A stretch of 16,255 bases of DNA from the UHGV virus genome UHGV-0338003. One strand, given 5' to 3'. Positions within the stretch are counted from its first letter, which is position 1, and each line of letters begins with the position of its first letter. This document shows positions 2,375 through 16,102 of this stretch, in pieces. A program made the translations under genes and the position numbers. The stretch comes from a virus. The notes beneath the pieces were generated by a model. That model was not told the DNA's origin, did no database searches, and saw nothing but the letters and a program-made list of their open reading frames with translations.

Positions 2375-3184
2375 TCAATGAACGGTATCGAGCAGCTTTA
2401 ACAGCTCAGGGAATCGGGATTCGAAGAAATGCGGCTGCGTCTCACGCGGATTTGCGGGACTGGTAATGTTCTTGCCGAACATGCAACCTTTCGCTGTCAG
2501 CGACCAGAATTTTTTGATGTTGTTAATCGCGGTACGGCTGTATCGTTCGCGTTGTTCAACGATCCCCAGCTTCGCCATCTGGTGATATGCCTGATTAGCC
2601 GTCAGGCGGATACCATACTGCTTCAGCAGTGCACTCAGCGACAGCGTCGGGCGGCTTGAGCCATCAGGCGCGTCAGCAGGTGCATCAATGGCATAGCGCG
2701 GTGCCAGATTCGGTAAGCCAACAGCCTCCTGGAGTTTCTGACAGGCCCCAAGCACTGAAGAGTTAGACAGGTTTAACTCCCTGCGCATAAAGTCCAGCAG
2801 AATCACTCCAGCCTGCATCTTGTCAGCAGCCTGCCCGGATAATTTTTCCGGTACGCTGGTTACCATATCGAAAGTACGGATCACCTTCAGATGGAATGAC
2901 GGGCTGATCCACATTGCATAGGCATACACCAGTTCTTTGCAGACATACGTCCCCTGGTTATTTCCGCCATTAATGACGCTAACTGGTTGATTTTGTTCCA
3001 GAGGCGGAATTCCACCCTCGGTGAAAAGTTGTTCAATCAATTCACAGGTTTGCTTATTGGAGAGCCAGTATTTCGGGCGGTTTTTTTGTTCTCCCCCGGC
3101 TGCCCTGTGCAGATCGTTCAGGCTGTAACGCCCATAAGCATCACGACGAACTTCAATACCATCAATGACCATCAGATTATTCAT
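2375..3184 (-). CDS. KilA-N domain protein (antirepressor-like)
   Basis: 269 aa. N-terminus VIDGIEVRRDAYGRYSLNDLHRAAGG...KNRPKYWL matches the KilA-N signature. Confidence 0.7.
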   Translation of the reverse strand: MNNLMVIDGIEVRRDAYGRYSLNDLHRAAGGEQKNRPKYWLSNKQTCELIEQLFTEGGIPPLEQNQPVSVINGGNNQGTYVCKELVYAYAMWISPSFHLKVIRTFDMVTSVPEKLSGQAADKMQAGVILLDFMRRELNLSNSSVLGACQKLQEAVGLPNLAPRYAIDAPADAPDGSSRPTLSLSALLKQYGIRLTANQAYHQMAKLGIVEQRERYSRTAINNIKKFWSLTAKGCMFGKNITSPANPRETQPHFFESRFPELLKLLDTVH

Positions 3185-3203
3185 ACTTCGTTTCTCCTCT
3201 TAA

Positions 3204-3593
3204 TCAGGCGGCTGCACCCGCCGTTTTCTCGTACTTACTGATAGTGATCTCGACCTTCCCTCCCGGGATAACCGGTCCCCACTCCACCAGCATTCTTTTC
3301 ACCTGACTGTCGTCTTCCCACACACCCGCGTGGGTCAGGGCGTCAAACAGCGCCTTGTTATAGTTGTCCAGATCGCGGATCCGGTTATCCGGAGGAAACA
3401 ACACGATCTCCACTGAAGCAGGTGCCGACGTTGGTTTCGGCAGACGACGTAACTGCTCAACTATTGCTGCGCACGCCGCGCTCTGGAATTTTCGCCCCGC
3501 CGCGCTTATCAGACTCTTACCAGCAAACGCCCCTTTGTTGGGGTGTCGCCAGTACGTGTTCACGCTGGGCGGGAAAGGCAAGATCAGCTTCAT
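3204..3593 (-). CDS. rusA: RusA-family Holliday junction resolvase
   Basis: 129 aa with PPSVNTYW and RDLDNYNKALFDALTHAGVWEDDSQV motifs characteristic of RusA. Typical nin-region gene. Confidence 0.85.
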   Translation of the reverse strand: MKLILPFPPSVNTYWRHPNKGAFAGKSLISAAGRKFQSAACAAIVEQLRRLPKPTSAPASVEIVLFPPDNRIRDLDNYNKALFDALTHAGVWEDDSQVKRMLVEWGPVIPGGKVEITISKYEKTAGAAA

Positions 3594-6346: not shown

Positions 6347-6894
6347 GCGTTAGTTTCTCCACAGTCACGACACGCCACGGCGCCCGGAGCTGCACACTCG
6401 CGGGCGTCATTACTTTCTGAAATGCAAAAAATTTTGTAGACCAGTGCTGCATGCTCCTGCAGCTTCGAAATTGAGAGGTACAGCTCGTCGTTAATTGCTG
6501 TCTTCTCATGCGGTTCCACTACACCGTCTTCAATTGCTGAACGAATCTGTTTTGAATAACTGCCGATCTGTTCAATGACTTCCAGCAGGCGCTGGTTAAT
6601 ATCGGCGTTGTCCACATCCTCGACGTCAGGAAGAGACACAAAGACGCCATTTGCAGACTGCGCCACAGCGTCAGCAATGAAGTGAGTTCCACCAGCACGT
6701 TGCAAAATCATTGCCCATCCCAGCGGGAAAATCTGATCGCCATCGGCACGAAGGCGGTTAAATAATGCGTTCTCTGTTACATCCAGCCAGTCAGCAGCTT
6801 CAGCGTACCCCCCCGGCAACGCTGCGATAGTTTTTCTGACAGCTTTCACGTACCACTCAGGCTGTTTTTCTACTTTCCAGTGATGCTTACCCAC
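6343..6894 (-). CDS. CII-like regulatory protein (phage CII/CP76-type, YdaT-like)
   Basis: 183 aa, immediately downstream of cro with overlapping start and stop. Central [22 protein letters not shown] resembles CII-family regulators. Assignment from position and memory only. Confidence 0.45.
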
Positions 6895-7147
6895 GGTTCA
6901 CCTCCTGTTCCTGTGGTTTAAACCCATTCTGATTTTGGCTAGATTGAAAACGTGCCGGATAAAGAATCTGCATTTCGCTGACTTCACCCTTAAAAAAATT
7001 GGCTAAACGTTCTGCAAGCTCGATAGATGGAATCTGCTCCAGCCTCTCAATACGACTCAACGTCGCTGGATTGACTTGAACACCCGCAGCAACATGCTGC
7101 AAAGTGAAACCATGCGCCTTACGCACATTTCGTAATGGTGATTGCAT
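6887..7147 (-). CDS. Cro-like HTH (XRE-family) transcriptional regulator
   Basis: 86 aa with HTH GFTLQHVAAGVQVNPATLSRIERLEQIPS. GGAGGA RBS upstream. Divergent from the cI gene across an operator region. Confidence 0.7.
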   Translation of the reverse strand: MQSPLRNVRKAHGFTLQHVAAGVQVNPATLSRIERLEQIPSIELAERLANFFKGEVSEMQILYPARFQSSQNQNGFKPQEQEVNRG

Positions 7148-7161
7148 ATGTCCTCCAAATA

Positions 7162-7224
7162 TTGCGCGTTATGCATGTTATTTCACGCAATTATTTTGCG
7201 CAAGTTGATTTGCTTATCACGCAA
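7162..7224. promoter_or_regulatory. OR-like operator region with three sites between the divergent cro-like and cI genes
   Basis: Three partially palindromic sites at 24-bp spacing: TTGCGCGTTATGCAT (7162-7176), CGCAATTATTTTGCG (7186-7200), TTGCTTATCACGCAA (7210-7224). Divergent promoters are implied by gene arrangement. Confidence 0.55.
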
Positions 7225-7244: not shown

Positions 7245-7937
7245 ATGAACATAGGAAACCGAGTCAGACAACTTCGCCAAGCGAAGAACATGAAAATCGC
7301 CGATCTCGCTGAAGCAATAGGAGTAGATGCGGCGAACATCTCGCGCTTAGAAACGGGTAAGCAAAAACAATTTACCGAACAAACACTGAGTAATATTGCC
7401 AAGAGCTTAGGTGTTGATATTGCTGATCTCTTTACCTCTGCCCACAAAAGTAATACTGTATATAAAAACAGTAATAATGAGGATGTTGCGCAGGTGAAGG
7501 ATGTGTTCCGTATTGAAATGCTGGATATCAGTGCCAGTGCGGGAAATGGCCTTATCCAGGGCGGTGATGTCATTGATGTGATTCATGCCATCGAATACAG
7601 AACTGATAATGCTGTATCAATGTTCGGCGGACGACCAGCCAATCACATCAAAGTTATCAACGTTCGTGGGGACAGTATGTGTCCAACCATTGAGCCAGGA
7701 GATCTCATCTTCGTTGATGTCAGCATCAATCAGTTTGATGGTGATGGTATATATGTCTTTGGTTTTGATGACAAAATATACGTTAAAAGACTTCAAATGA
7801 TTCCTGACAAACTGCTGGTGATTTCTGATAACCAGATTTACCGTGAATGGGGAATTACTAGCGAAAACGAACACCGATTCATGGTCTTTGGAAAGGTCTT
7901 AATCAGTCAGTCGCAAACCCTTAAGAGACATAATTAA
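7245..7937 (+). CDS. CI-type prophage repressor (HTH plus S24 LexA-like autopeptidase)
   Basis: 230 aa. N-terminal HTH (MKIADLAEAIGVDAANISRLETGKQ) and a C-terminal S24 domain with GDSM serine motif and downstream KR. No obvious SD before the ATG, so possibly leaderless. Confidence 0.85.
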   Translation: MNIGNRVRQLRQAKNMKIADLAEAIGVDAANISRLETGKQKQFTEQTLSNIAKSLGVDIADLFTSAHKSNTVYKNSNNEDVAQVKDVFRIEMLDISASAGNGLIQGGDVIDVIHAIEYRTDNAVSMFGGRPANHIKVINVRGDSMCPTIEPGDLIFVDVSINQFDGDGIYVFGFDDKIYVKRLQMIPDKLLVISDNQIYREWGITSENEHRFMVFGKVLISQSQTLKRHN

Positions 7938-7957
7938 CCTCAATATCCCATCCATCG

Positions 7958-7980
7958 GCCACCGAAAGGTGGCTTTTTAT
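7958..7980 (+). terminator. intrinsic terminator after the repressor gene
   Basis: Stem GCCACC, loop GAAA, stem GGTGGC, followed by TTTTTAT. Lies 20 bp downstream of the cI stop. Confidence 0.6.
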
Positions 7981-7991
7981 TACCTATAAAT

Positions 7992-8042
7992 TTGCATATT
8001 TCGCAAAAATCACTTGCATATCTCGCAATTTAATTTTATCTT
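7992..8042 (+). promoter_or_regulatory. PL/OL-like promoter with two operator copies
   Basis: Direct repeat TTGCATATTTCGCAA (7992-8006) and TTGCATATCTCGCAA (8014-8028), same TTGC-N7-GCAA pattern as the OR sites. -35 TTGCAT at 8014-8019, 17-nt spacer, -10 TATCTT at 8037-8042. Confidence 0.4.
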
Positions 8043-8199
8043 TTGTTCCAGACCAACTACAGGATTACAACAAAATCTGGTTGCAACACGGTGCATGTGT
8101 CGTAAGCAGTCAGTAAATGTCAAAAACGAACAGGCAGGACGCCCACGAAGTAGCCGCCTGGGGCATATGAAGTCCAGGATGATTCGTTAGCAACAAAAA

Positions 8200-8236
8200 A
8201 GCGCCCTACAGGACGCTTAGCTCTTTAACAATCTGG
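8200..8236 (+). promoter_or_regulatory. BoxA-like antitermination element preceded by a hairpin (nut-like or rrn-like)
   Basis: GCTCTTTAACAA (8220-8231) matches the rrn BoxA core and resembles lambda nut boxA (CGCTCTTA). Preceded by the AGCGCC...GGACGCT hairpin. Sits in the leader between the PL-like promoter and the first plus-strand ORF. Confidence 0.4.
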
Positions 8237-8276
8237 TCCCCATCAACAAGTAACTGATAACTTGAGGAGATGTGAA

Positions 8277-8483
8277 ATGCACAAAACAGAACCCAAAATC
8301 GTCGCGCCTGGCTACACAGATGAGGAAATTTATGAGTGGATGACAAAGAAGCTGGCAGCTATAAACCAGCTTCGTGAAGTGCTGTCTTATCGACAGGAAA
8401 CAATAGACTCCTTAAAAAAACTGGATCAGGAAATCACGGTTTTATCACAGGATGTTACTTTAGATATTGTGCAGACAAATTAG
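8277..8483 (+). CDS. hypothetical small protein (predicted helical)
   Basis: 68 aa from the ATG at 8277, with a GAGGAG RBS 7 nt upstream. The ORF-track start at 8262 is a TTG. The 3' end overlaps the convergent 144-aa gene by 29 bp. Confidence 0.4.
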   Translation: MHKTEPKIVAPGYTDEEIYEWMTKKLAAINQLREVLSYRQETIDSLKKLDQEITVLSQDVTLDIVQTN

Positions 8484-8889
8484 GATCCCATTCATTTTCG
8501 TCAAAATCATCAAAGTGATGAATTTGTGATCTCCAGTCTCGATAATCTAAAAATTTCTGGGCGGTTACGCTTATTTTATCAAGTGTGAGTTCATCCTGAA
8601 TTGAAAGAAGAAGTTCATCAAATTTCATCTCATTAATCTGTTTTGGCATCCAGTGATGCTTCATCAGAATAAGGTGAACCAGAGCCTTTTTCCCATTCAA
8701 CTGATTATAGGGAGTGCCGAATTTCTTCCGGTGCTCATGTAAGACAAGGTCCAGAAGAGTAAGTAATGTTGCCCTTGATTCAACTTTGCTTATTTCGACT
8801 GATGACACTACCCCACTGATTTCAATGCCCCGATACTTTCCAACATTTTCACAGTGGGATTTGTACAGCGTATAGATATTACCGGACAT
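8455..8889 (-). CDS. hypothetical protein, AT-rich immunity-region moron
   Basis: 144 aa. ATG at 8889 with an AAGGA RBS on the minus strand. No recognisable family by eye. Direct repeats lie upstream. Confidence 0.5.
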   Translation of the reverse strand: MSGNIYTLYKSHCENVGKYRGIEISGVVSSVEISKVESRATLLTLLDLVLHEHRKKFGTPYNQLNGKKALVHLILMKHHWMPKQINEMKFDELLLSIQDELTLDKISVTAQKFLDYRDWRSQIHHFDDFDENEWDPNLSAQYLK

Positions 8890-9357
8890 TTCTTTTCCTT
8901 TTGCGTTGTTGGGGATAACCAGATTAACCGAATCCTTGTTGTTGGGGAATAACCAGGTCCACCTCGCCTGATGTGGCTAAAAGCAGGCACATAACAGCTA
9001 AGTATTTTCAACCAGAGAGAATCCTTAGCGTTGTGGTGAATGCGGCTCAGCGCACGCGGGTTAAGGTTGAGGCTGACAGTCGACCTTCTGTGGATACCCA
9101 CCCGCCTGGTGTGCAACCTTCGCCAGGCACCGGGAGGCACCCGGCACCACAACTTTATGCTGTGTGTAGTCCTGGCGGTACCAGCTTGTACCCTTGCTTC
9201 CGGCTGGTACCGTCCTTTTTACAAAACAGAGAAGAGCATCACCGGACGACGGGCTCATAACCCAATCCATCCGGGCGGCAGTCACCGCAGGTGTTCTTCT
9301 CTGTTTTGTGGAGAAACTAACCGACCTTGCAGGGTCGATATGATGAGGAGCAGCAAA

Positions 9358-9720
9358 ATGGCTAGCGAACGCAGTACTGATGTGCAGGCATTTATCGGGG
9401 AGCTGGACGGCGGCGTATTTGAAACCAAAATCGGCGCAGTTCTCAGTGAAGTCGCTTCCGGTGTGATGAACACGAAAACCAAAGGTAAGGTCTCGCTCAA
9501 CCTGGAAATCGAACCGTTTGATGAGAACCGTGTGAAAATCAAACACAAACTCTCATATGTTCGCCCAACTAACCGCGGGAAAATTTCCGAAGAAGACACC
9601 ACCGAAACGCCGATGTATGTCAATCGCGGTGGTCGCCTGACTATTCTGCAGGAAGACCAGGGACAATTACTGACTCTTGCCGGTGAACCTGACGGAAAAC
9701 TCCGCGCAGCAGGTCGTTAA
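9358..9720 (+). CDS. YfdP-like prophage protein
   Basis: 120 aa from the ATG at 9358, with GAGGAG 7 nt upstream. The 5' extension to 9040 in the ORF track is GC-rich and not protein-like. Directly precedes YfdQ/YfdR-like genes, as in CPS-53. Confidence 0.55.
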   Translation: MASERSTDVQAFIGELDGGVFETKIGAVLSEVASGVMNTKTKGKVSLNLEIEPFDENRVKIKHKLSYVRPTNRGKISEEDTTETPMYVNRGGRLTILQEDQGQLLTLAGEPDGKLRAAGR

Positions 9721-9785: not shown

Positions 9786-10610
9786 ATGTCTCAGAACTTA
9801 GACGCAACCGCAATTAATCAAATCCATGCCCTTATTTCTGCTCAGGGTGTTAATGAAATTATCAGTAAGATTGGTGCCGATGCTGTGGCATTGCCTGAGA
9901 ATTTCCGCATTCATGATCTGGAAAAATTTAATTTAAATCGCTTCCGTTTCCGTGGTGCACTTTCCACTGCCAGCATCGATGATTTTACCCGTTATTCTAA
10001 AGATCTTGCAGATGAAGGCACCCGCTGCTTTATCGATGCCGATAATATGCGTGCCGTCAGTGTGCTTAACCTGGGTACTATTGATGAGCCAGGTCACGCA
10101 GATAACACTGCCACTCTCAAACTGAAAAAGACAGCACCGTTCTCTGCTCTGTTGTCTGTTAACGGCGAGCGTAACTCCCAGAAGTCACTGGCAGAATGGA
10201 TCGAAGACTGGGCCGACTACCTTGTGGGCTTTGATGCTAATGGTGACACCATTCAGGCAACAAAAGCGGCTGCGGCGGTCCGTAAAATCACGATTGAAGC
10301 AAACCAGACTGCTGATTTTGAAGATAATGACTTCAGCGGCAAACGCTCCCTGATGGAGTCTGTCGAAGCGAAGACCAAAGACATTATGCCAGTGGCATTT
10401 GAGTTTAAATGCGTTCCGTTTGAAGGTCTGAAAGAACGTCCGTTTAAATTACGCCTCAGCATTATCACTGGCGATCGTCCTGTACTGGTTCTGCGCATTA
10501 TTCAGCTGGAAGCGGTGCAGGAAGATATGGCTAACGAATTTCGTGATCTGCTTGTTGAGAAATTCAAGGACAGCAAAGTAGAAACCTTTATTGGGACTTT
10601 CACCGCCTGA
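9786..10610 (+). CDS. yfdQ: YfdQ-like protein (DUF2303 family)
   Basis: 274 aa with a GAGGA RBS. Recognised from memory as the conserved prophage protein encoded upstream of yfdR in E. coli CPS-53. Confidence 0.65.
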
Positions 10611-10738
10611 TTTCATTACTGCAAATGCCCCTGCGGGGGCATTTATGGAAACGTAATTGACTCAATAATCGCCTGAAGGCGAGGGTTTTCTTTAACCAAA
10701 ATTCAGCGCGGTGCAGCGCATATAACGTGGAGAACAAA

Positions 10739-11263
10739 ATGTCATTTATTAAAACTTTTTCCGGGAAACATTTTTATTATGACAGGATAAATAAAGACAA
10801 CATCGATATTAACGATATCGCGGTTTCCCTTTCAAATATCTGTCGCTTTGCCGGCCATCTTTCACACTTCTACAGCGTCGCCCAACATGCGGTGCTTTGC
10901 AGCCAGCTGGTACCGCAGGAATTTGCTTTTGAAGCGTTAATGCATGATGCAACAGAAGCGTATTGCCAGGACATCCCGGCTCCACTGAAACGCCTTCTTC
11001 CTGACTATAAACGGATGGAAGAAAAAATAGACGCCGTAATCCGTGAGAAATACGGGTTACCCCCGGTTATGAGTACGCCCGTGAAATATGCCGATCTCAT
11101 CATGCTGGCAACCGAACGCCGCGATCTCGGGCTTGATGATGGCTCTTTCTGGCCCGTACTGGAAGGTATCCCGGCAACAGAGATGTTCAAAGTTATTCCA
11201 CTGTCGCCAGGCCATACCTATGGGATGTTTATGGAACGCTTTAAAGAGTTAACTGAGTCGTAA
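10739..11263 (+). CDS. yfdR: HD-domain 5'-deoxynucleotidase (YfdR-like)
   Basis: HD-domain metal-binding residues present (H...H, then MHDATEAY). ATG at 10739 follows a GGAGAA RBS. The ORF track's GTG at 10727 would give 178 aa. Confidence 0.7.
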   Translation: MSFIKTFSGKHFYYDRINKDNIDINDIAVSLSNICRFAGHLSHFYSVAQHAVLCSQLVPQEFAFEALMHDATEAYCQDIPAPLKRLLPDYKRMEEKIDAVIREKYGLPPVMSTPVKYADLIMLATERRDLGLDDGSFWPVLEGIPATEMFKVIPLSPGHTYGMFMERFKELTES

Positions 11264-11371
11264 AAATCAGCACGTACGAATTCAAACTCTGCCATAAAAG
11301 AACATATAAGTAATTTATTAACATATAGATATAGGTTATATTACAAATTGAAAAATTATTGGAGAGCAACA

Positions 11372-12238
11372 ATGAATCAAAATCCATTCTCATTCTATGA
11401 CTTTCTTGGATATTTAATACCAGGTGGTTTTTTTATCCTATTAATGTATTTCTGTGGTTTGACATTCGATCTAGATATTGTTATTGACTTAAGTGAATTG
11501 CTCAGAGGTCAAAGTCAAATCTTTGGCATTTTGAACTACGCTTCAATAGTTATTATATCTTATATAGCTGGACATTTTATTTCTATCACGTCAGCATTTT
11601 TTATCGAAAAATACATGAATAAAGAATTAGGATATCCTTCCAAATATCTATTTAAAAAATTGATAGATACCTCAGAAAGCATTTGTAGCCCATCATGCGA
11701 TGAGAGAAGCGCTGATAAAAAAACAAAAATAAAGAATCGCATAATCAAATGCGTATTATGTCCAATAATACTATGGGATTTTATAACACAAAAACTATGT
11801 TATTCTCAATCTCTACCATTTCATTTAGCTAATACAACATGGTTAATGATCAAAGAAGGTTATGAGAAAAAGTTCATAACAAATCGCCAATTATTACAAG
11901 ATAAAAACGGACTTGATGATGATCTCTTCAGATTGGCATATCATTATGTTTATGAGTTTTCAAAACAACATCAAACAAAAATTCAAAACTATGTTGCATT
12001 ATATGGTTTTTGCAGAAACATATGTTTAATCTTTATAATTTCATTTTGGGTATCAGTTCCAACCTTTATTTATCGATTATGTACTCATAGTGATTATCTT
12101 TATAGTTTACTTTCAATAATGCTTAGCTTTTTCTTCGTCTATGTTTTCTATGTTGGTTTTGTTAAATTTTATAGAAGATATACTTTAGAAGTATTAATGG
12201 CATTTGCTGTACTTCAAAGTAACGACACTATTCGTTAA
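11372..12238 (+). CDS. hypothetical integral membrane protein, AT-rich moron
   Basis: 288 aa from the ATG at 11372, with GGAGAG 5 nt upstream (track start 11348 is TTG). Hydrophobic helices at both ends (GYLIPGGFFILLMYFCGL, IVIISYIAGHFISITSAFFI, ICLIFIISFWVSVPTFIY, LSIMLSFFFVYVFYVGFV) around a soluble middle. Much lower GC than its neighbours. Confidence 0.55.
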   Translation: MNQNPFSFYDFLGYLIPGGFFILLMYFCGLTFDLDIVIDLSELLRGQSQIFGILNYASIVIISYIAGHFISITSAFFIEKYMNKELGYPSKYLFKKLIDTSESICSPSCDERSADKKTKIKNRIIKCVLCPIILWDFITQKLCYSQSLPFHLANTTWLMIKEGYEKKFITNRQLLQDKNGLDDDLFRLAYHYVYEFSKQHQTKIQNYVALYGFCRNICLIFIISFWVSVPTFIYRLCTHSDYLYSLLSIMLSFFFVYVFYVGFVKFYRRYTLEVLMAFAVLQSNDTIR

Positions 12239-12279: not shown

Positions 12280-12486
12280 ATGCTGAACCTCGATTGTGTT
12301 CCTATCTCAACTTATTGCAAAGAAACTGGCGAAACTCCTGAAGCAATAAACAAACGTGTACAGCGCGGTGTTTGGCGTGAAGGTGTTCAGGTTTTAAAGG
12401 TTGAAGGCGTTAAGGAGAGGTGGATTGATCTTAGTGAGGTTGCAAAATGGGCCAGACAAAACTGCTCAAACTACCGCGCGGCGTAA
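12280..12486 (+). CDS. xis: excisionase-like small DNA-binding protein (Xis)
   Basis: 68 aa from the ATG at 12280, with GGAGA 5 nt upstream. Immediately upstream of and overlapping int. Basic protein with Trp residues typical of small Xis proteins. Called mainly from position. Confidence 0.45.
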   Translation: MLNLDCVPISTYCKETGETPEAINKRVQRGVWREGVQVLKVEGVKERWIDLSEVAKWARQNCSNYRAA

Positions 12487-13619
12487 CAATCAGGAAACAC
12501 CGCCAGGGAGAAACGATCAATATAACTTTCACCTACAAAGGAGTTAGATGTCGTGAGCCGCTTTCCAATCTGGAAGTAACACCAAAGAACATTAAATACG
12601 CCGAGCGTACACTCGGCGAAATCCATAATAAGATCGAAAGGGGAACATTCATTTATGCAGAATATTTTCCCCGTTCTGCTCGTTTGAAAATTTTTGGTAA
12701 TGCTGCTGCAGGCAAAACGGTAAAGATGTACCTGGACGAATATCTTGAAATCTGCGAAACAAGAAAACTTTCACCCTCTACGATTGGTGGCTATAAAAAA
12801 TGCCGTAGTGCGTTAGCCTCACTTCACATTTGCCCTGCAAGTGAATTAACACCAGCAACCCTGAAAGCGTGGATTCAAAATCAGAAAACGACCTTAAAAA
12901 CAATTCGCAACCAGTTATCTTTCCTGCGGTCAGCACTTGATGAAGCCGTGACCGATGGGGTACTTCAAATTAACCCCGTATCGTTAGTAACAGCTTCGCG
13001 CTACCAAAGTGATAAGTCAGAAGCAGAAAGCAGCTACGTAGTTGATCCGCTATCACCAGCAGAAGTTGATGCATTACTAGCAGCAGCCGGAAACAAACAA
13101 TGGGAAAATCTGTTCCGGTTCGCTATACATACAGGCCTGCGTAGTTCTGAATTATGTGCCCTTCGATGGCGTGATATCGACTTTGTTGGAAAAACTGCCC
13201 ATGTCCAGAGCGCAAGTGTTGTCGGTGTTATCAAAGGGACAAAGACAAAAGCAGGTACTCGGAAAGTTGAACTGACAGAAGAGGCAATGTTGGCGCTGAT
13301 AAATCAGAAGCCATTTACATTCATGAAGGATACTACTGTCTTTGAAGATCCAAAGACCAATAAGCCTTGGGCAAGTGCTGATGCAATCAGGAAAAAAGCA
13401 TGGGTGCCAACATTGCGAAAAGCAGGTATTCGTTACAGAAATCCATATCAAACTAGGCATACATTCGCCACCCGCCATATCAGCCGGGGAGCAAACCTGT
13501 TTTGGCTTGCAGCTCAAATGGGGCATAAAGGGCCGGAAATGTTATTTCGTCATTATGGTTCATATTTAAAGGAATATGACGGTAATACGACCAGCAATAT
13601 CACAAAAAAAGCCACTTAA
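12447..13619 (+). CDS. int: tyrosine recombinase, lambda-family phage integrase
   Basis: 390 aa. C-terminal catalytic signature: R in AIHTGLRSSEL, HTFATRHISRG, and RHYGSY with the nucleophile Tyr. Adjacent to the att-like tmRNA fragment. Confidence 0.9.
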   Translation: MGQTKLLKLPRGVTIRKHRQGETINITFTYKGVRCREPLSNLEVTPKNIKYAERTLGEIHNKIERGTFIYAEYFPRSARLKIFGNAAAGKTVKMYLDEYLEICETRKLSPSTIGGYKKCRSALASLHICPASELTPATLKAWIQNQKTTLKTIRNQLSFLRSALDEAVTDGVLQINPVSLVTASRYQSDKSEAESSYVVDPLSPAEVDALLAAAGNKQWENLFRFAIHTGLRSSELCALRWRDIDFVGKTAHVQSASVVGVIKGTKTKAGTRKVELTEEAMLALINQKPFTFMKDTTVFEDPKTNKPWASADAIRKKAWVPTLRKAGIRYRNPYQTRHTFATRHISRGANLFWLAAQMGHKGPEMLFRHYGSYLKEYDGNTTSNITKKAT

Positions 13620-13632: not shown

Positions 13633-14016
13633 TTAGGAGGCTCTCGATTTAAGCATTTCCGTACACTTAGCAAAGAGCCTCTCAGTTGTTAGAATCGCAA
13701 CTTCAGACTGTTTAGAAGTGACCGATTGATCAAGTCGATAGTCTGCAACAATCCTCTGAGCTTTAAGTTGACTCAGGATAAAACTAATCCCTTTTAGATA
13801 TCTAGCTTCATATACTTCACTTCCTCTTGAAGCATCGCCCTGCAAATAATTGATTAGCCCCTGATGACTGTCTTTCGGCCCGTTTACCATACAAGGCAAG
13901 ACATGATGGTAAGCGCCATAGTAGGATCTTGCTATAGCATTTCGATAGCCGATTTCGTCATTACGTTGATGACAGTCTTTTGCAAAACCGAGAAAATCTT
14001 GACTATTAACCGGCAT
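13633..14016 (-). CDS. HEPN-like domain protein (candidate effector or toxin)
   Basis: 127 aa from the ATG at 14016, with GGAGGG 6 nt upstream. N-terminal helix AKDCHQRNDEIGYRNAIARSYYGAYHHV and a later R-x4-DY (QRIVADYRL) fit the general HEPN pattern. Overlaps the upstream gene by 11 bp. Confidence 0.45.
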   Translation of the reverse strand: MPVNSQDFLGFAKDCHQRNDEIGYRNAIARSYYGAYHHVLPCMVNGPKDSHQGLINYLQGDASRGSEVYEARYLKGISFILSQLKAQRIVADYRLDQSVTSKQSEVAILTTERLFAKCTEMLKSRAS

Positions 14017-14821
14017 GTGCAACCCTCCGGGTAATCAGACCTAATTCGGAGATAGCATTCTGCTCAATATGTGTGTCTTTACATTCAAACCAAACAGCAA
14101 AATCTTTACCGACTAAACAATCGTGCTCAGCCATTGAAAAAGCAAGCTCAATATTCATATCAGCGATTTGTTCAGCATCAGAAGACTTTGTCATGAATAC
14201 AATCGCATTCACTTTCTCTTCCGAAATATTATAAAAACGCATTCCCGAAAGATGAACCTTCTGAGAATCCATGACATTGGCTACATTATTGAAAATAAGT
14301 TCATATTCTAAACCAGAAAGATCGGCACGTTGCTTAAAGGATTCGACCTGGGAAACAACTTCATCAAAATTGTTGTCCATTTTTTCAGGCTCCTTATCTC
14401 CGAACAATTTAGAGTATGACTGGAAATACTTCTCCGCCAACGCCATCTTCCCCATAAAGAGGGAGTTTTCATAAGCTTGAAGATAAATAAACGGGGATAT
14501 GAAGCTTTCAGCAAGCTTAATGCTTGTTTCAAAGCTTTTCTTCAACGTACCGTAATCTGACAAGAAAACAAGAAAATTCTTTGCAACAACCTCATTATGG
14601 CATACCTGCAAGGAACGCTCAAAGAAGCCTATCGCCTCATTCACTTGGCCATGTGCACCATAGACCAACGCTAAAAGATAGTCCTCAGAGACAGGATCTC
14701 TAAGTGCTTCAATCTCACGTAACATCCTTCTAAAGCTAAAGTCATCAATCCTCACTCCATCTTTGAGGTATTTAGTTAGCCGCGCGCTAATAACTGATGC
14801 TTTTTTTGCTGGCTGCAACAT
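14006..14821 (-). CDS. hypothetical protein, upstream partner of the HEPN-like gene
   Basis: 271 aa. ATG at 14821. Predicted mostly helical. No nucleotidyltransferase motif (GS...D.D) and no recognised family. Confidence 0.5.
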   Translation of the reverse strand: MLQPAKKASVISARLTKYLKDGVRIDDFSFRRMLREIEALRDPVSEDYLLALVYGAHGQVNEAIGFFERSLQVCHNEVVAKNFLVFLSDYGTLKKSFETSIKLAESFISPFIYLQAYENSLFMGKMALAEKYFQSYSKLFGDKEPEKMDNNFDEVVSQVESFKQRADLSGLEYELIFNNVANVMDSQKVHLSGMRFYNISEEKVNAIVFMTKSSDAEQIADMNIELAFSMAEHDCLVGKDFAVWFECKDTHIEQNAISELGLITRRVAHAG

Positions 14822-15483: not shown

Positions 15484-16102
15484 ATGGCAAGACAAACCAA
15501 ACCTCTATCCGTTAAAGAAATCGAATCTGCTAAACCCAAGGAAGCGGACTACGTTCTCTATGATGGCGATGGCCTTGAGCTACTTATCAAATCCAGCGGG
15601 AGTAAAATCTGGCAGTTTCGCTACATTCGCCCTGTCACCAAGAAACGTGCGAAGAAGAGCATAGGCCCCTACCCGTCAGTTACGCTTGCCGATGCCAGAA
15701 ACTACCGGGCAGAGTCACGCTCTCTCCTGGCGAAACAAATCGATCCACAGGAACATCAGCAAGAACAACTTCGCAGTTCGCTTGAAGCTAAAACCAATAC
15801 TTTCCAACTCGTGGCTGAACGATGATGGAATGTGAAGAAAGCCAGCGTGACAGAGGACTATGCCGACGATATCTGGCGCTCTATTGAAGAGATGTCTTTC
15901 CTGCAATTGGCGACGTTAGCGTTACAGATATTAAAGCTCACACACTGGTTCAGGCCGTCCAACCGGTTCAGGCCAGAGGAGCAAAACCGTTTGTCGCCTG
16001 TGCCAGCGCATTAATGAGGTCATGACCTATGCCCAAAACACATGGCTGATTGATGCTGTTCCCAGCGTTAATATTGGTAAAGCCTTCGAGAAGCCTCAGT
16101 AA
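15484..16102 (+). pseudogene. P4-type (IntA-like) integrase, decayed
   Basis: N-terminus MARQTKPL...YDGDGLELLIKSSGSKIWQFRY is the P4-type arm-binding domain. In-frame TGA at 15823-15825. Homology continues in other frames after about 15890 (DVFPAIGD...) and about 15975 (RINEVMTYAQNTW), ending near 16102, far short of a full-length integrase. Confidence 0.7.

Follow-up and report, generated by a model that had tools for sequence, protein, structure and literature searches.

Two convergent genes beside the immunity region

We analysed a stretch of 16,255 nucleotides from the virus genome UHGV-0338003, hereafter called the window, with attention to two convergent, overlapping genes situated between cI and yfdP. 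This window is a lambdoid E. coli prophage and belongs to the SfIV/SfII/SfV group; in it a Q-like antiterminator, the replication genes, a cII-like gene, cro and cI are followed by the leftward early operon (Table 1). One gene of the pair, referred to here as gene A, encodes a 144-aa protein and lies antisense to that operon. The other, gene B, encodes a small YdfC-like protein of 68 aa and is the first open reading frame (ORF) downstream of the OL-like operators, the same relative place that ydfC has behind dicA. Several properties of the pair had been proposed in a sequence-only reading of the window and are borne out here. The ORF list confirms the coordinates and strands, the two ORFs converging and sharing 29 bp (8455-8483). 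The pair is indeed AT-rich, with a GC content of 35-41% across 8400-8900 compared to 50-59% in the adjoining leader (8900-9400), and the good ribosome-binding site attributed to gene A corresponds to an AGGA-type site before its ATG. In gene B, GAGGAG stands 8 nt before the ATG.

The same reading had placed the pair right after the cI terminator and a set of PL-like operators. The order is correct and the operators are reasonable: degenerate copies of TTGCATATNTCGCAA are found in the cro-cI intergenic region (7162-7176 and 7210-7224), and for this reason we regard the sites at 7992-8028 as OL-type operators. Overlapping them is a weak PL-like promoter (TTGCAT-17-TATCTT), read by eye and below the threshold of the promoter scan. 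Gene B, however, does not follow immediately, since its start lies about 250 nt beyond the operators.

Comparison by blastn with SfIV, SfII, SfV and PhiR29_1 revealed a slot whose edges (8122-8188 to the left; 8959 or 8905 onward to the right) are conserved and whose content is swapped. The pair is carried by SfIV, Kati and two vB_Eco phages, whereas the slot holds a 63-aa minus-strand gene (phrog_2605) in SfII, a minus-strand gene of phrog_1244 in PhiR29_1 and orf33 (3095-3391, +) in SfV. Viral scans for related loci returned mostly near-identical loci. Related E. coli phages carry both genes or neither, the pair is present in 409-435 of the 5426 complete E. coli genomes, always with both genes, and in the IMG/VR loci it is linked to more than one cI allele. 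The pair is an accessory 'moron' in a variable slot next to the immunity region, which bears out its placing next to the repressor. Of the features expected from a moron, we found presence or absence between conserved flanks, a minus-strand terminator and a deviant GC content in the pair itself; expression in lysogens comes from the ST64B homologue only (see below). About 8% of the complete E. coli genomes carry the exact cassette, and relatives are present in at least seven enteric genera.

The sequence-only reading had recognised no family for either protein, which proved incorrect for both. The 144-aa protein scores 157.8 bits with the curated NCBIfam model NF033230 ('ECs1072 family phage-associated protein'), whose cutoff is 70; residues 4-144 align with positions 2-142 of the 142 in the profile, and the identical RefSeq protein WP_000016389.1 carries the ECs1072-family name. 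Its sole PHROG match is phrog_5286, of unassigned function. The family is small, with 65 representatives at E<=1e-3 in an exhaustive HMMER search, all of about 145-150 aa; the named members belong to Escherichia, Salmonella, Enterobacter, Proteus and Providencia. In a 51-member alignment H72 and W134 are invariant, and R54, L64, G66, A69 and W80 nearly so. AlphaFold2 gave a confident all-alpha model (predicted local distance difference test, pLDDT, 93.8), and the protein is predicted to be soluble and to have an orphan fold: Foldseek of the model against BFVD had a best E of 0.6, and searches of Pfam, PADLOC and PDB sequences, both with the single sequence and with a 51-sequence profile, found nothing.

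The 68-aa protein matches phrog_1744 (6e-35) and the 'YdfC family' protein of PhiR42_1 (41% identity over 66 of the 68 residues, E 9e-18), and with it tblastn matches ydfC in 19 phage records; for the YdfC family neither Pfam nor NCBIfam has a curated model. It is small and acidic (isoelectric point 4.8), and AlphaFold2 models it as a 14-residue N-terminal segment followed by a single long helix, residues 15-57 (pLDDT 88.7). YdfC is a small protein of unknown function encoded in the DicA-controlled dicBF operon of prophage Qin (PMC5069750). The likeness to Qin YdfC, at 41% identity, extends to its place as an early ORF of a repressor-controlled leftward operon; in Qin-like phages, in contrast to the window, ydfC is unpaired with an ECs1072-family gene and is followed by dicF/dicB or by other genes. 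Neither protein of the window pair has a Pfam family at E<=0.01 or a membrane-like segment (maximum 19-residue Kyte-Doolittle means 0.84 and 0.29). PADLOC-DB v2 gave no family for these two proteins, for the partners described below or for the other occupants of the slot, the one match being insignificant (E 0.0067).

Since the 3' ends of the two convergent genes overlap, the transcript of each runs antisense to some or all of that of the other. The strong minus-strand terminator (8199-8218), which is also present at the matching place in the related module of locus L181 (58% identical; the loci compared here carry L numbers), is likely the end of the gene A mRNA. As it lies beyond gene B, this mRNA would be antisense to the whole of gene B, and transcription from PL would run antisense to the whole of gene A. 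A 9-bp hairpin inside gene B is possibly a first, weak terminator of the gene A transcript.

Recurrence of the pairing and expression in lysogens

We examined the neighbourhoods of ECs1072-family genes at 23-58% identity. Seen from this side, the pairing recurs in about 12 independent contexts. Taking both sides together, it is found in prophages of Escherichia, Salmonella, Klebsiella, Enterobacter, Proteus, Providencia and Serratia, usually with an overlap of the two genes, and the module uses two slots, either behind PL or between Q and holin. Six loci have it in the Q-holin slot (ST64B sb50, Klebsiella KPP5665-2, Proteus, Enterobacter, Providencia and one unassigned contig), with a convergent partner of 85-93 aa and overlaps of 71-107 bp. 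In five further loci (L181, L175, L179, L180 and L178) it lies behind a cI-type repressor, as in the window. L181 has a 68-aa partner overlapping by 50 bp, and L175, L179 and L180 have a YdfC-like gene of 67-73 aa plus a gene of 190-202 aa that overlaps the ECs1072 gene by 150-230 bp and whose C-terminal half bears the partner motif. The pairing is also found when starting from the partner: Serratia P0168 has a convergent neighbour of 148 aa that matches the profile of the ECs1072 family at 99.9%. In every case gene A is antisense to the lytic operon and gene B co-directional with it.

The partners align without gaps and share an invariant P6 and W21, 15 residues apart (P-x14-W), followed by a helix. 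Outside the partner position this signature occurs in 3-4 of the 6785 unique ORFs in the fetched loci, and hhalign relates the YdfC-type to the Sb50-type partners with 80.6% probability (E 1.3e-5). In the Q-holin modules the terminator of gene A is embedded in the gene B ORF. Across 11 diverse modules the embedded hairpin is paired in 97.7% of cells and the T-run is invariant; there is only one compensatory pair, and RNA structure is therefore inseparable from coding constraint.

The annotation of the pair in database records has gaps. The ECs1072-family gene is absent from those of ST64B (L006, AY055382, 2845-3279) and Klebsiella KPP5665-2, and in SfIV (L002, about 3157-3363) the 68-aa gene is missing and the spurious overlapping SfIV_35 and SfIV_34 are annotated instead. 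We found no paper that describes the pairing or a function, and none that mentions the protein accessions, the PHROG identifiers or NF033230; the DefensePredictor supplements do not list the ECs1072 protein. ECs1072 is named once, as growth-phase-responsive, in an O157 Sakai microarray table.

Expression data are available for ST64B. Its pair (L006 2845-3279 and 3209-3568) matches STMMW_20121 and STMMW_20131 in gene lengths, in the 71-nt overlap and in the post-holin position, these genes being listed at 2090066-2090500 (435 nt, next to holin) and 2090430-2090789 (360 nt), respectively (PMC7067206 supplementary table). In the lysogen both are present at about 20-270 transcripts per million (TPM) in nearly all conditions, compared to 0.1-40 TPM for the adjacent lytic genes (PMC7067206). 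Owen et al. 2020 reported that STMMW_20121 is transcribed from a promoter of its own and lies opposite lytic genes, and they flagged it as a candidate accessory gene expressed in lysogeny; they treated it as a single gene, its partner and family not being described there (PMC7067206). The ST64B locus resembles the window in having a 144-aa ECs1072 gene that overlaps its partner, sb50/STMMW_20131, and differs in lying between Q and holin, not behind PL, and in sharing about 30% identity. A good PR'-like promoter (TTGAAA-16-TATGAT) precedes the ST64B partner. Transcription in lysogens, which the sequence-only reading had named as a check on the pair, is thus seen in published RNA-seq for both genes, in the ST64B homologues as distinct from the window pair.

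Possible roles of the pair

In λ (NC_001416) the PL operon begins with N (35037-35438, -), on which sieB (34482-35036, +) converges from the antisense strand. The window pair is arranged in the same way, lying in the PL operon with gene A antisense and converging on the first PL gene. sieB is expressed in lysogens, and P22 protects itself by the inhibitor Esc and an antisense RNA (sas). The gene A protein differs from SieB in lacking sequence or family similarity to it (no Pfam match) and any hydrophobic segment, and the candidate for self-protection would be a separate convergent gene for a conserved protein, not an internal start. λ rexAB, for its part, lies between cI and OL, is co-oriented with cI and includes a gene for a membrane protein (RexB), whereas in the window only a terminator separates cI from the operators, and neither a RexA/RexB Pfam match nor a hydrophobic 19-mer was found. 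Of the 'rexAB/sieB-equivalent slot' assigned to the pair from the sequence, then, the position and orientation of sieB can be kept and the rexAB slot cannot. The pair is a prophage moron that occupies the sieB position and whose convergent partner codes for a protein; both families had been catalogued without being characterised, and no earlier account of their pairing was found. A likeness of concept only exists with BstA/aba, a lysogen-expressed prophage gene beside the immunity region with built-in self-avoidance. The BstA protein itself is unrelated, and self-immunity there depends on a DNA element and not on a protein.

Our preferred reading, held tentatively and with somewhat less than even confidence, is that the two genes form one conserved accessory module of Enterobacterales lambdoid prophages that acts in phage-phage conflict. 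During lysogeny, transcription of gene A would start in the region upstream of it and oppose the lytic operon, and gene B would be read together with that operon, being the first ORF after PL (window) or after a PR'-like promoter (ST64B-type). The proteins may act together, A being the effector and B the cognate modulator or antidote, and convergent transcription may set the A:B ratio, so that PL de-repression would silence A and raise B. The role could be superinfection exclusion or abortive infection with built-in self-protection, as for λ/P22 sieB. Judging from the kinds of gene that fill such slots, involvement in phage-phage conflict seems the most likely role of the module, and an exclusion function of the pair is plausible. 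Solitary ydfC genes in Qin-like phages could act as counter-measures. Induction of a K-12 ydfC-containing operon without dicF and dicB is not growth-inhibitory (PMC5069750), which argues against the small protein as a toxin and would fit an antidote instead.

Should exclusion or abortive infection with a cognate antidote prove to be the function, the module would represent a new family of prophage-encoded immunity, would explain the sieB-like position as a cargo hotspot and would give K-12 YdfC its first function; otherwise it would be a clean example of conserved overlapping convergent genes for antisense control in prophages. Two 'hypothetical proteins' become a defined two-gene unit, antisense to the lytic operon, with a convergent overlap and expression in the lysogen.

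Several observations weigh against a conserved conflict module. In L178 the partner is reduced to a 45-aa remnant, and L174 has an ECs1072 homologue without a partner. Conversely, YdfC-like genes without an ECs1072 gene face unrelated convergent genes in Qin-like phages (PhiR42_1, PPompW) and in Arsenophonus. A hidden Markov model built from YdfC-type sequences alone missed the Sb50-type partners even at E<=10, and the homology of the partners therefore rests on profile-profile similarity, the gap-free alignment and synteny. The promoter scan found no consensus sigma-70 promoter upstream of gene A. Finally, the regulation of the partner differs by slot, being under cI-repressed PL in the window and lysogen-expressed in ST64B, so a 'lytic-only antidote' cannot be general.

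A stricter form of the conflict role, which we consider rather unlikely, is a hitherto unrecognised two-component system built on an orphan fold, in which A, made in lysogens, blocks or aborts infecting phages and the helical B, encoded first behind PL or PR', binds and neutralises A. The resident phage, and any phage with a solitary ydfC, would then escape, and the convergent overlap would be the switch between the two states.

The opposite view, that the two genes are unrelated neighbours, is unlikely. According to it, the YdfC-like gene would be an ordinary early or late leader gene whose 3' end is a hotspot for morons, ECs1072 being one of these. The solitary genes just described fit this view, both the YdfC-like ones facing other convergent genes and the partnerless homologue of L174, as does the other cargo of the slot in SfII, SfV and PhiR29_1. 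Against it, the pair is found in two slots and seven genera with parallel divergence (A at about 30% identity, B at about 20%), keeps a coding overlap of 29-230 bp, is present as both genes or neither in related E. coli phages, and has the terminator of A embedded in the ORF of B.

The expression of both genes in ST64B lysogens would also be expected of a toxin-antitoxin-like addiction or stabilisation module, with A as the toxin and the B protein, its antisense transcript or both as the antitoxin that keeps the prophage. We regard this as improbable. The convergent, 3'-overlapping transcripts do resemble the type I layouts txpA/RatA and bsrG/SR4, down to the terminators embedded in the partner, and the partner is small, acidic and, judging from YdfC, not toxic. 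Unlike in type I systems, the antisense partner here encodes a conserved protein and the large protein is not a small hydrophobic peptide; a type II arrangement does not apply either, the genes being convergent and not a co-directional operon. Neither protein shows similarity to a toxin-antitoxin family or domain in Pfam, NCBIfam or PADLOC, and L174 keeps A alone. Moreover, the window partner is behind a cI-repressed PL, and the toxin would therefore be unopposed in the lysogen.

Even less probable, in our view, is that the pair is a regulator of the lysis-lysogeny decision, antisense transcription at PL or at Q/PR' damping leaky lytic transcription and the proteins being secondary or regulators themselves. 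λ paQ and oop are antisense devices to which it could be likened. Gene A always points at the nearest lytic promoter, its transcript in the window would cover the whole PL leader down to 8199, and the STMMW_20121 transcript is constitutive in lysogens. Yet both proteins are conserved at the amino-acid level over a wide divergence, with invariant H72 and W134 in A and P6 and W21 in B, and close relatives of the phage do without the module.

An invertible or transposable cassette bounded by inverted repeats (8230-8250 and 8906-8948) and switching the gene that faces PL is very improbable: imperfect inverted repeats do flank the window cassette and different cargo in PhiR29_1, L181 and L174, but the window arms are degenerate (15/20), no recombinase is associated, all full-length E. 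coli matches are single co-linear pieces, and inversion was rejected on finding the same order and orientation relative to both flanks in 80 of 80 IMG/VR loci.

Repeats, leaders and other cargo

Table 1. Features of the immunity region, cargo slot and early operon of the window, with the inverted pairs of three other loci
Feature	Position	Strand	Remarks
cro	6887-7147	-	
cI-like repressor	7245-7937	+	Peptidase_S24 (6e-19) plus HTH_3/HTH_26; same allele labelled cI in SfII
Intrinsic terminator after cI	7957-7974	+	7-bp stem then TTTTATT; terminator also annotated in the SfII record
Two OL-like operators	7992-8006, 8014-8028	+	exact 15-mer TTGCATATNTCGCAA repeated
Leader segment, left edge of variable slot	8122-8188	+	kept across phages with different cI alleles (blastn)
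Strong intrinsic terminator for minus-strand transcripts	8199-8218	-	8-bp GC-rich stem then UUUUUUGUUGC
Left arm of imperfect inverted repeat	8230-8250		matches direct repeats at 8906-8948; arms degenerate, 15/20
68-aa YdfC-like small protein (gene B)	8277-8483	+	ORF list 8262-8483, ATG at 8277
9-bp hairpin inside the 68-aa ORF	8348-8373	-	82 nt past the 144-aa stop; z -3.7; weak U-tract
144-aa ECs1072-family protein (gene A)	8455-8889	-	from the ORF list; antisense to PL operon
Tandemly duplicated leader unit	8906-8956	-	just upstream of the 144-aa start; 34-nt tandem duplication
Conserved upstream block TGTGCCTG-N-CCACnTCAGGCnnGTGG	8957-8995	-	common to all minus-strand cargo genes of the slot
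yfdP	9358-9720	+	leftward early operon
yfdQ/DUF2303	9786-10610	+	leftward early operon
yfdR	10727-11263	+	leftward early operon
xis/int	12447-13619	+	leftward early operon
Inverted pair, window	8230-8250/8906-8925		
Inverted pair, L005	3110-3135/3664-3689		
Inverted pair, L181	2967-2978/3647-3658		
Inverted pair, L174	3968-3986/4548-4566		

Direct repeats upstream of gene A had been put forward as possible regulator binding sites. Two copies of TTGTTGGGGA(N0-1)TAACCAG are real (8906-8922 and 8939-8956, one base away from where they had been placed), as none of 200 shuffles gave any match, whereas the proposed third copy (about 9019-9036) is weak, its 14/18 match being no better than many chance two-copy families. 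Alignment of the upstream regions showed the leader unit to be single in SfII, SfV, L175, L178-L180 and the Proteus/Providencia phages, and double in the window, L181, L174 and PhiR29_1. Because the leader also precedes unrelated minus-strand cargo (SfII, SfV, PhiR29_1), the repeats belong to the slot and not to the 144-aa gene; the idea of sites specific to gene A has to be given up, the duplicated leader being shared with the unrelated cargo genes of these phages and with the Proteus/Providencia phages. The promoter scan found no consensus promoter in the conserved upstream block (8957-8995). An extended -10 (TGGTATNNT) in the leaders of the Proteus, Providencia and SfII phages was considered by eye as a promoter candidate; it is degenerate in the window and is not claimed.

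Better inverted pairs than that of the window flank other cassettes: 12/12 in L181, 26 nt at 85% in PhiR29_1 and 19 nt at 74% in L174. These inverted repeats, which have the palindromic core AATCTGGATATCC, bracket the slot cargo even where the cargo differs, and in L174 the ECs1072 homologue is all that they enclose. From each arm it is 16-47 nt to a start codon downstream. An operator, a long-range RNA stem and a recombination scar are all candidates for their role.

On the strand read from PL, the hairpin at 8199-8218 is directly followed by GCTCTTTAACAA (8220-8231), which we take to match the rrn boxA antitermination consensus at 12/13 positions. L181 and PhiR29_1 share this arrangement, and SfII and SfV lack it. 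No N gene is recognisable in the phage. Hairpin and GCTCTTTAACAA together could be a nut-like site.

In SfV (L004) we noticed a candidate unannotated minus-strand ORF at about 3310-3558, starting MTFDEKELDNAINKII and read by eye, that would converge on orf33 and overlap it. If this is so, SfV would hold a different convergent overlapping pair in the same slot.

The GC-rich leader upstream of yfdP (8959-9357, +), especially 9000-9223, is strongly structured (-174.5 kcal/mol; z -7.4 on the + strand versus z -3.2 on the - strand). Rfam at its gathering thresholds found nothing in the whole window; below threshold, this leader has a full-length match to the small RNA STnc100 (RF02076; 42.4 bits versus a gathering threshold of 47, E 1.7e-7), which a 2026 preprint relates to the prophage small RNA PasD. 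RefSeq calls the stretch a frameshifted hypothetical pseudogene.

Some of the modules in other loci have neighbours worth recording. In L172 and L176, the sequence from ~130 to >200 nt upstream of the homologue start reads like a reverse-complement tRNA gene (TGGTGGCCCTTGCTGGACTTGAACCAGC), which would put the Q-holin module beside phage tRNA genes, as in the late regions of Shiga toxin (Stx) phages. Others have domains associated with defence nearby: genes with SIR2_2 and DUF87 adjoin the Proteus module (L171 5892-8453), and DndB-like, dATP/dGTP pyrophosphohydrolase-like and ParB-like genes of the early-left operon adjoin that of L181 (1-2201).

Elsewhere in the window, a 296-aa ORF between yfdR and xis/int (11348-12238, +) has no Pfam family; it matches phrog_12528, of unassigned function, and weakly the PADLOC models of the CRISPR type VI-B accessory membrane proteins Csx27 (1.4e-5) and tm_4. 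This ORF is probably a further piece of cargo in the early-left operon. Past the integrase lie two overlapping minus-strand ORFs of 271 aa (14006-14821) and 129 aa (13633-14022). Pfam and NCBIfam have no family for either of them; for the 129-aa protein there is a faint HEPN_IX match (E 0.0014). A second integrase-like ORF (15484-15825) lies beyond them, and the two ORFs may form a separate islet at the attachment site.

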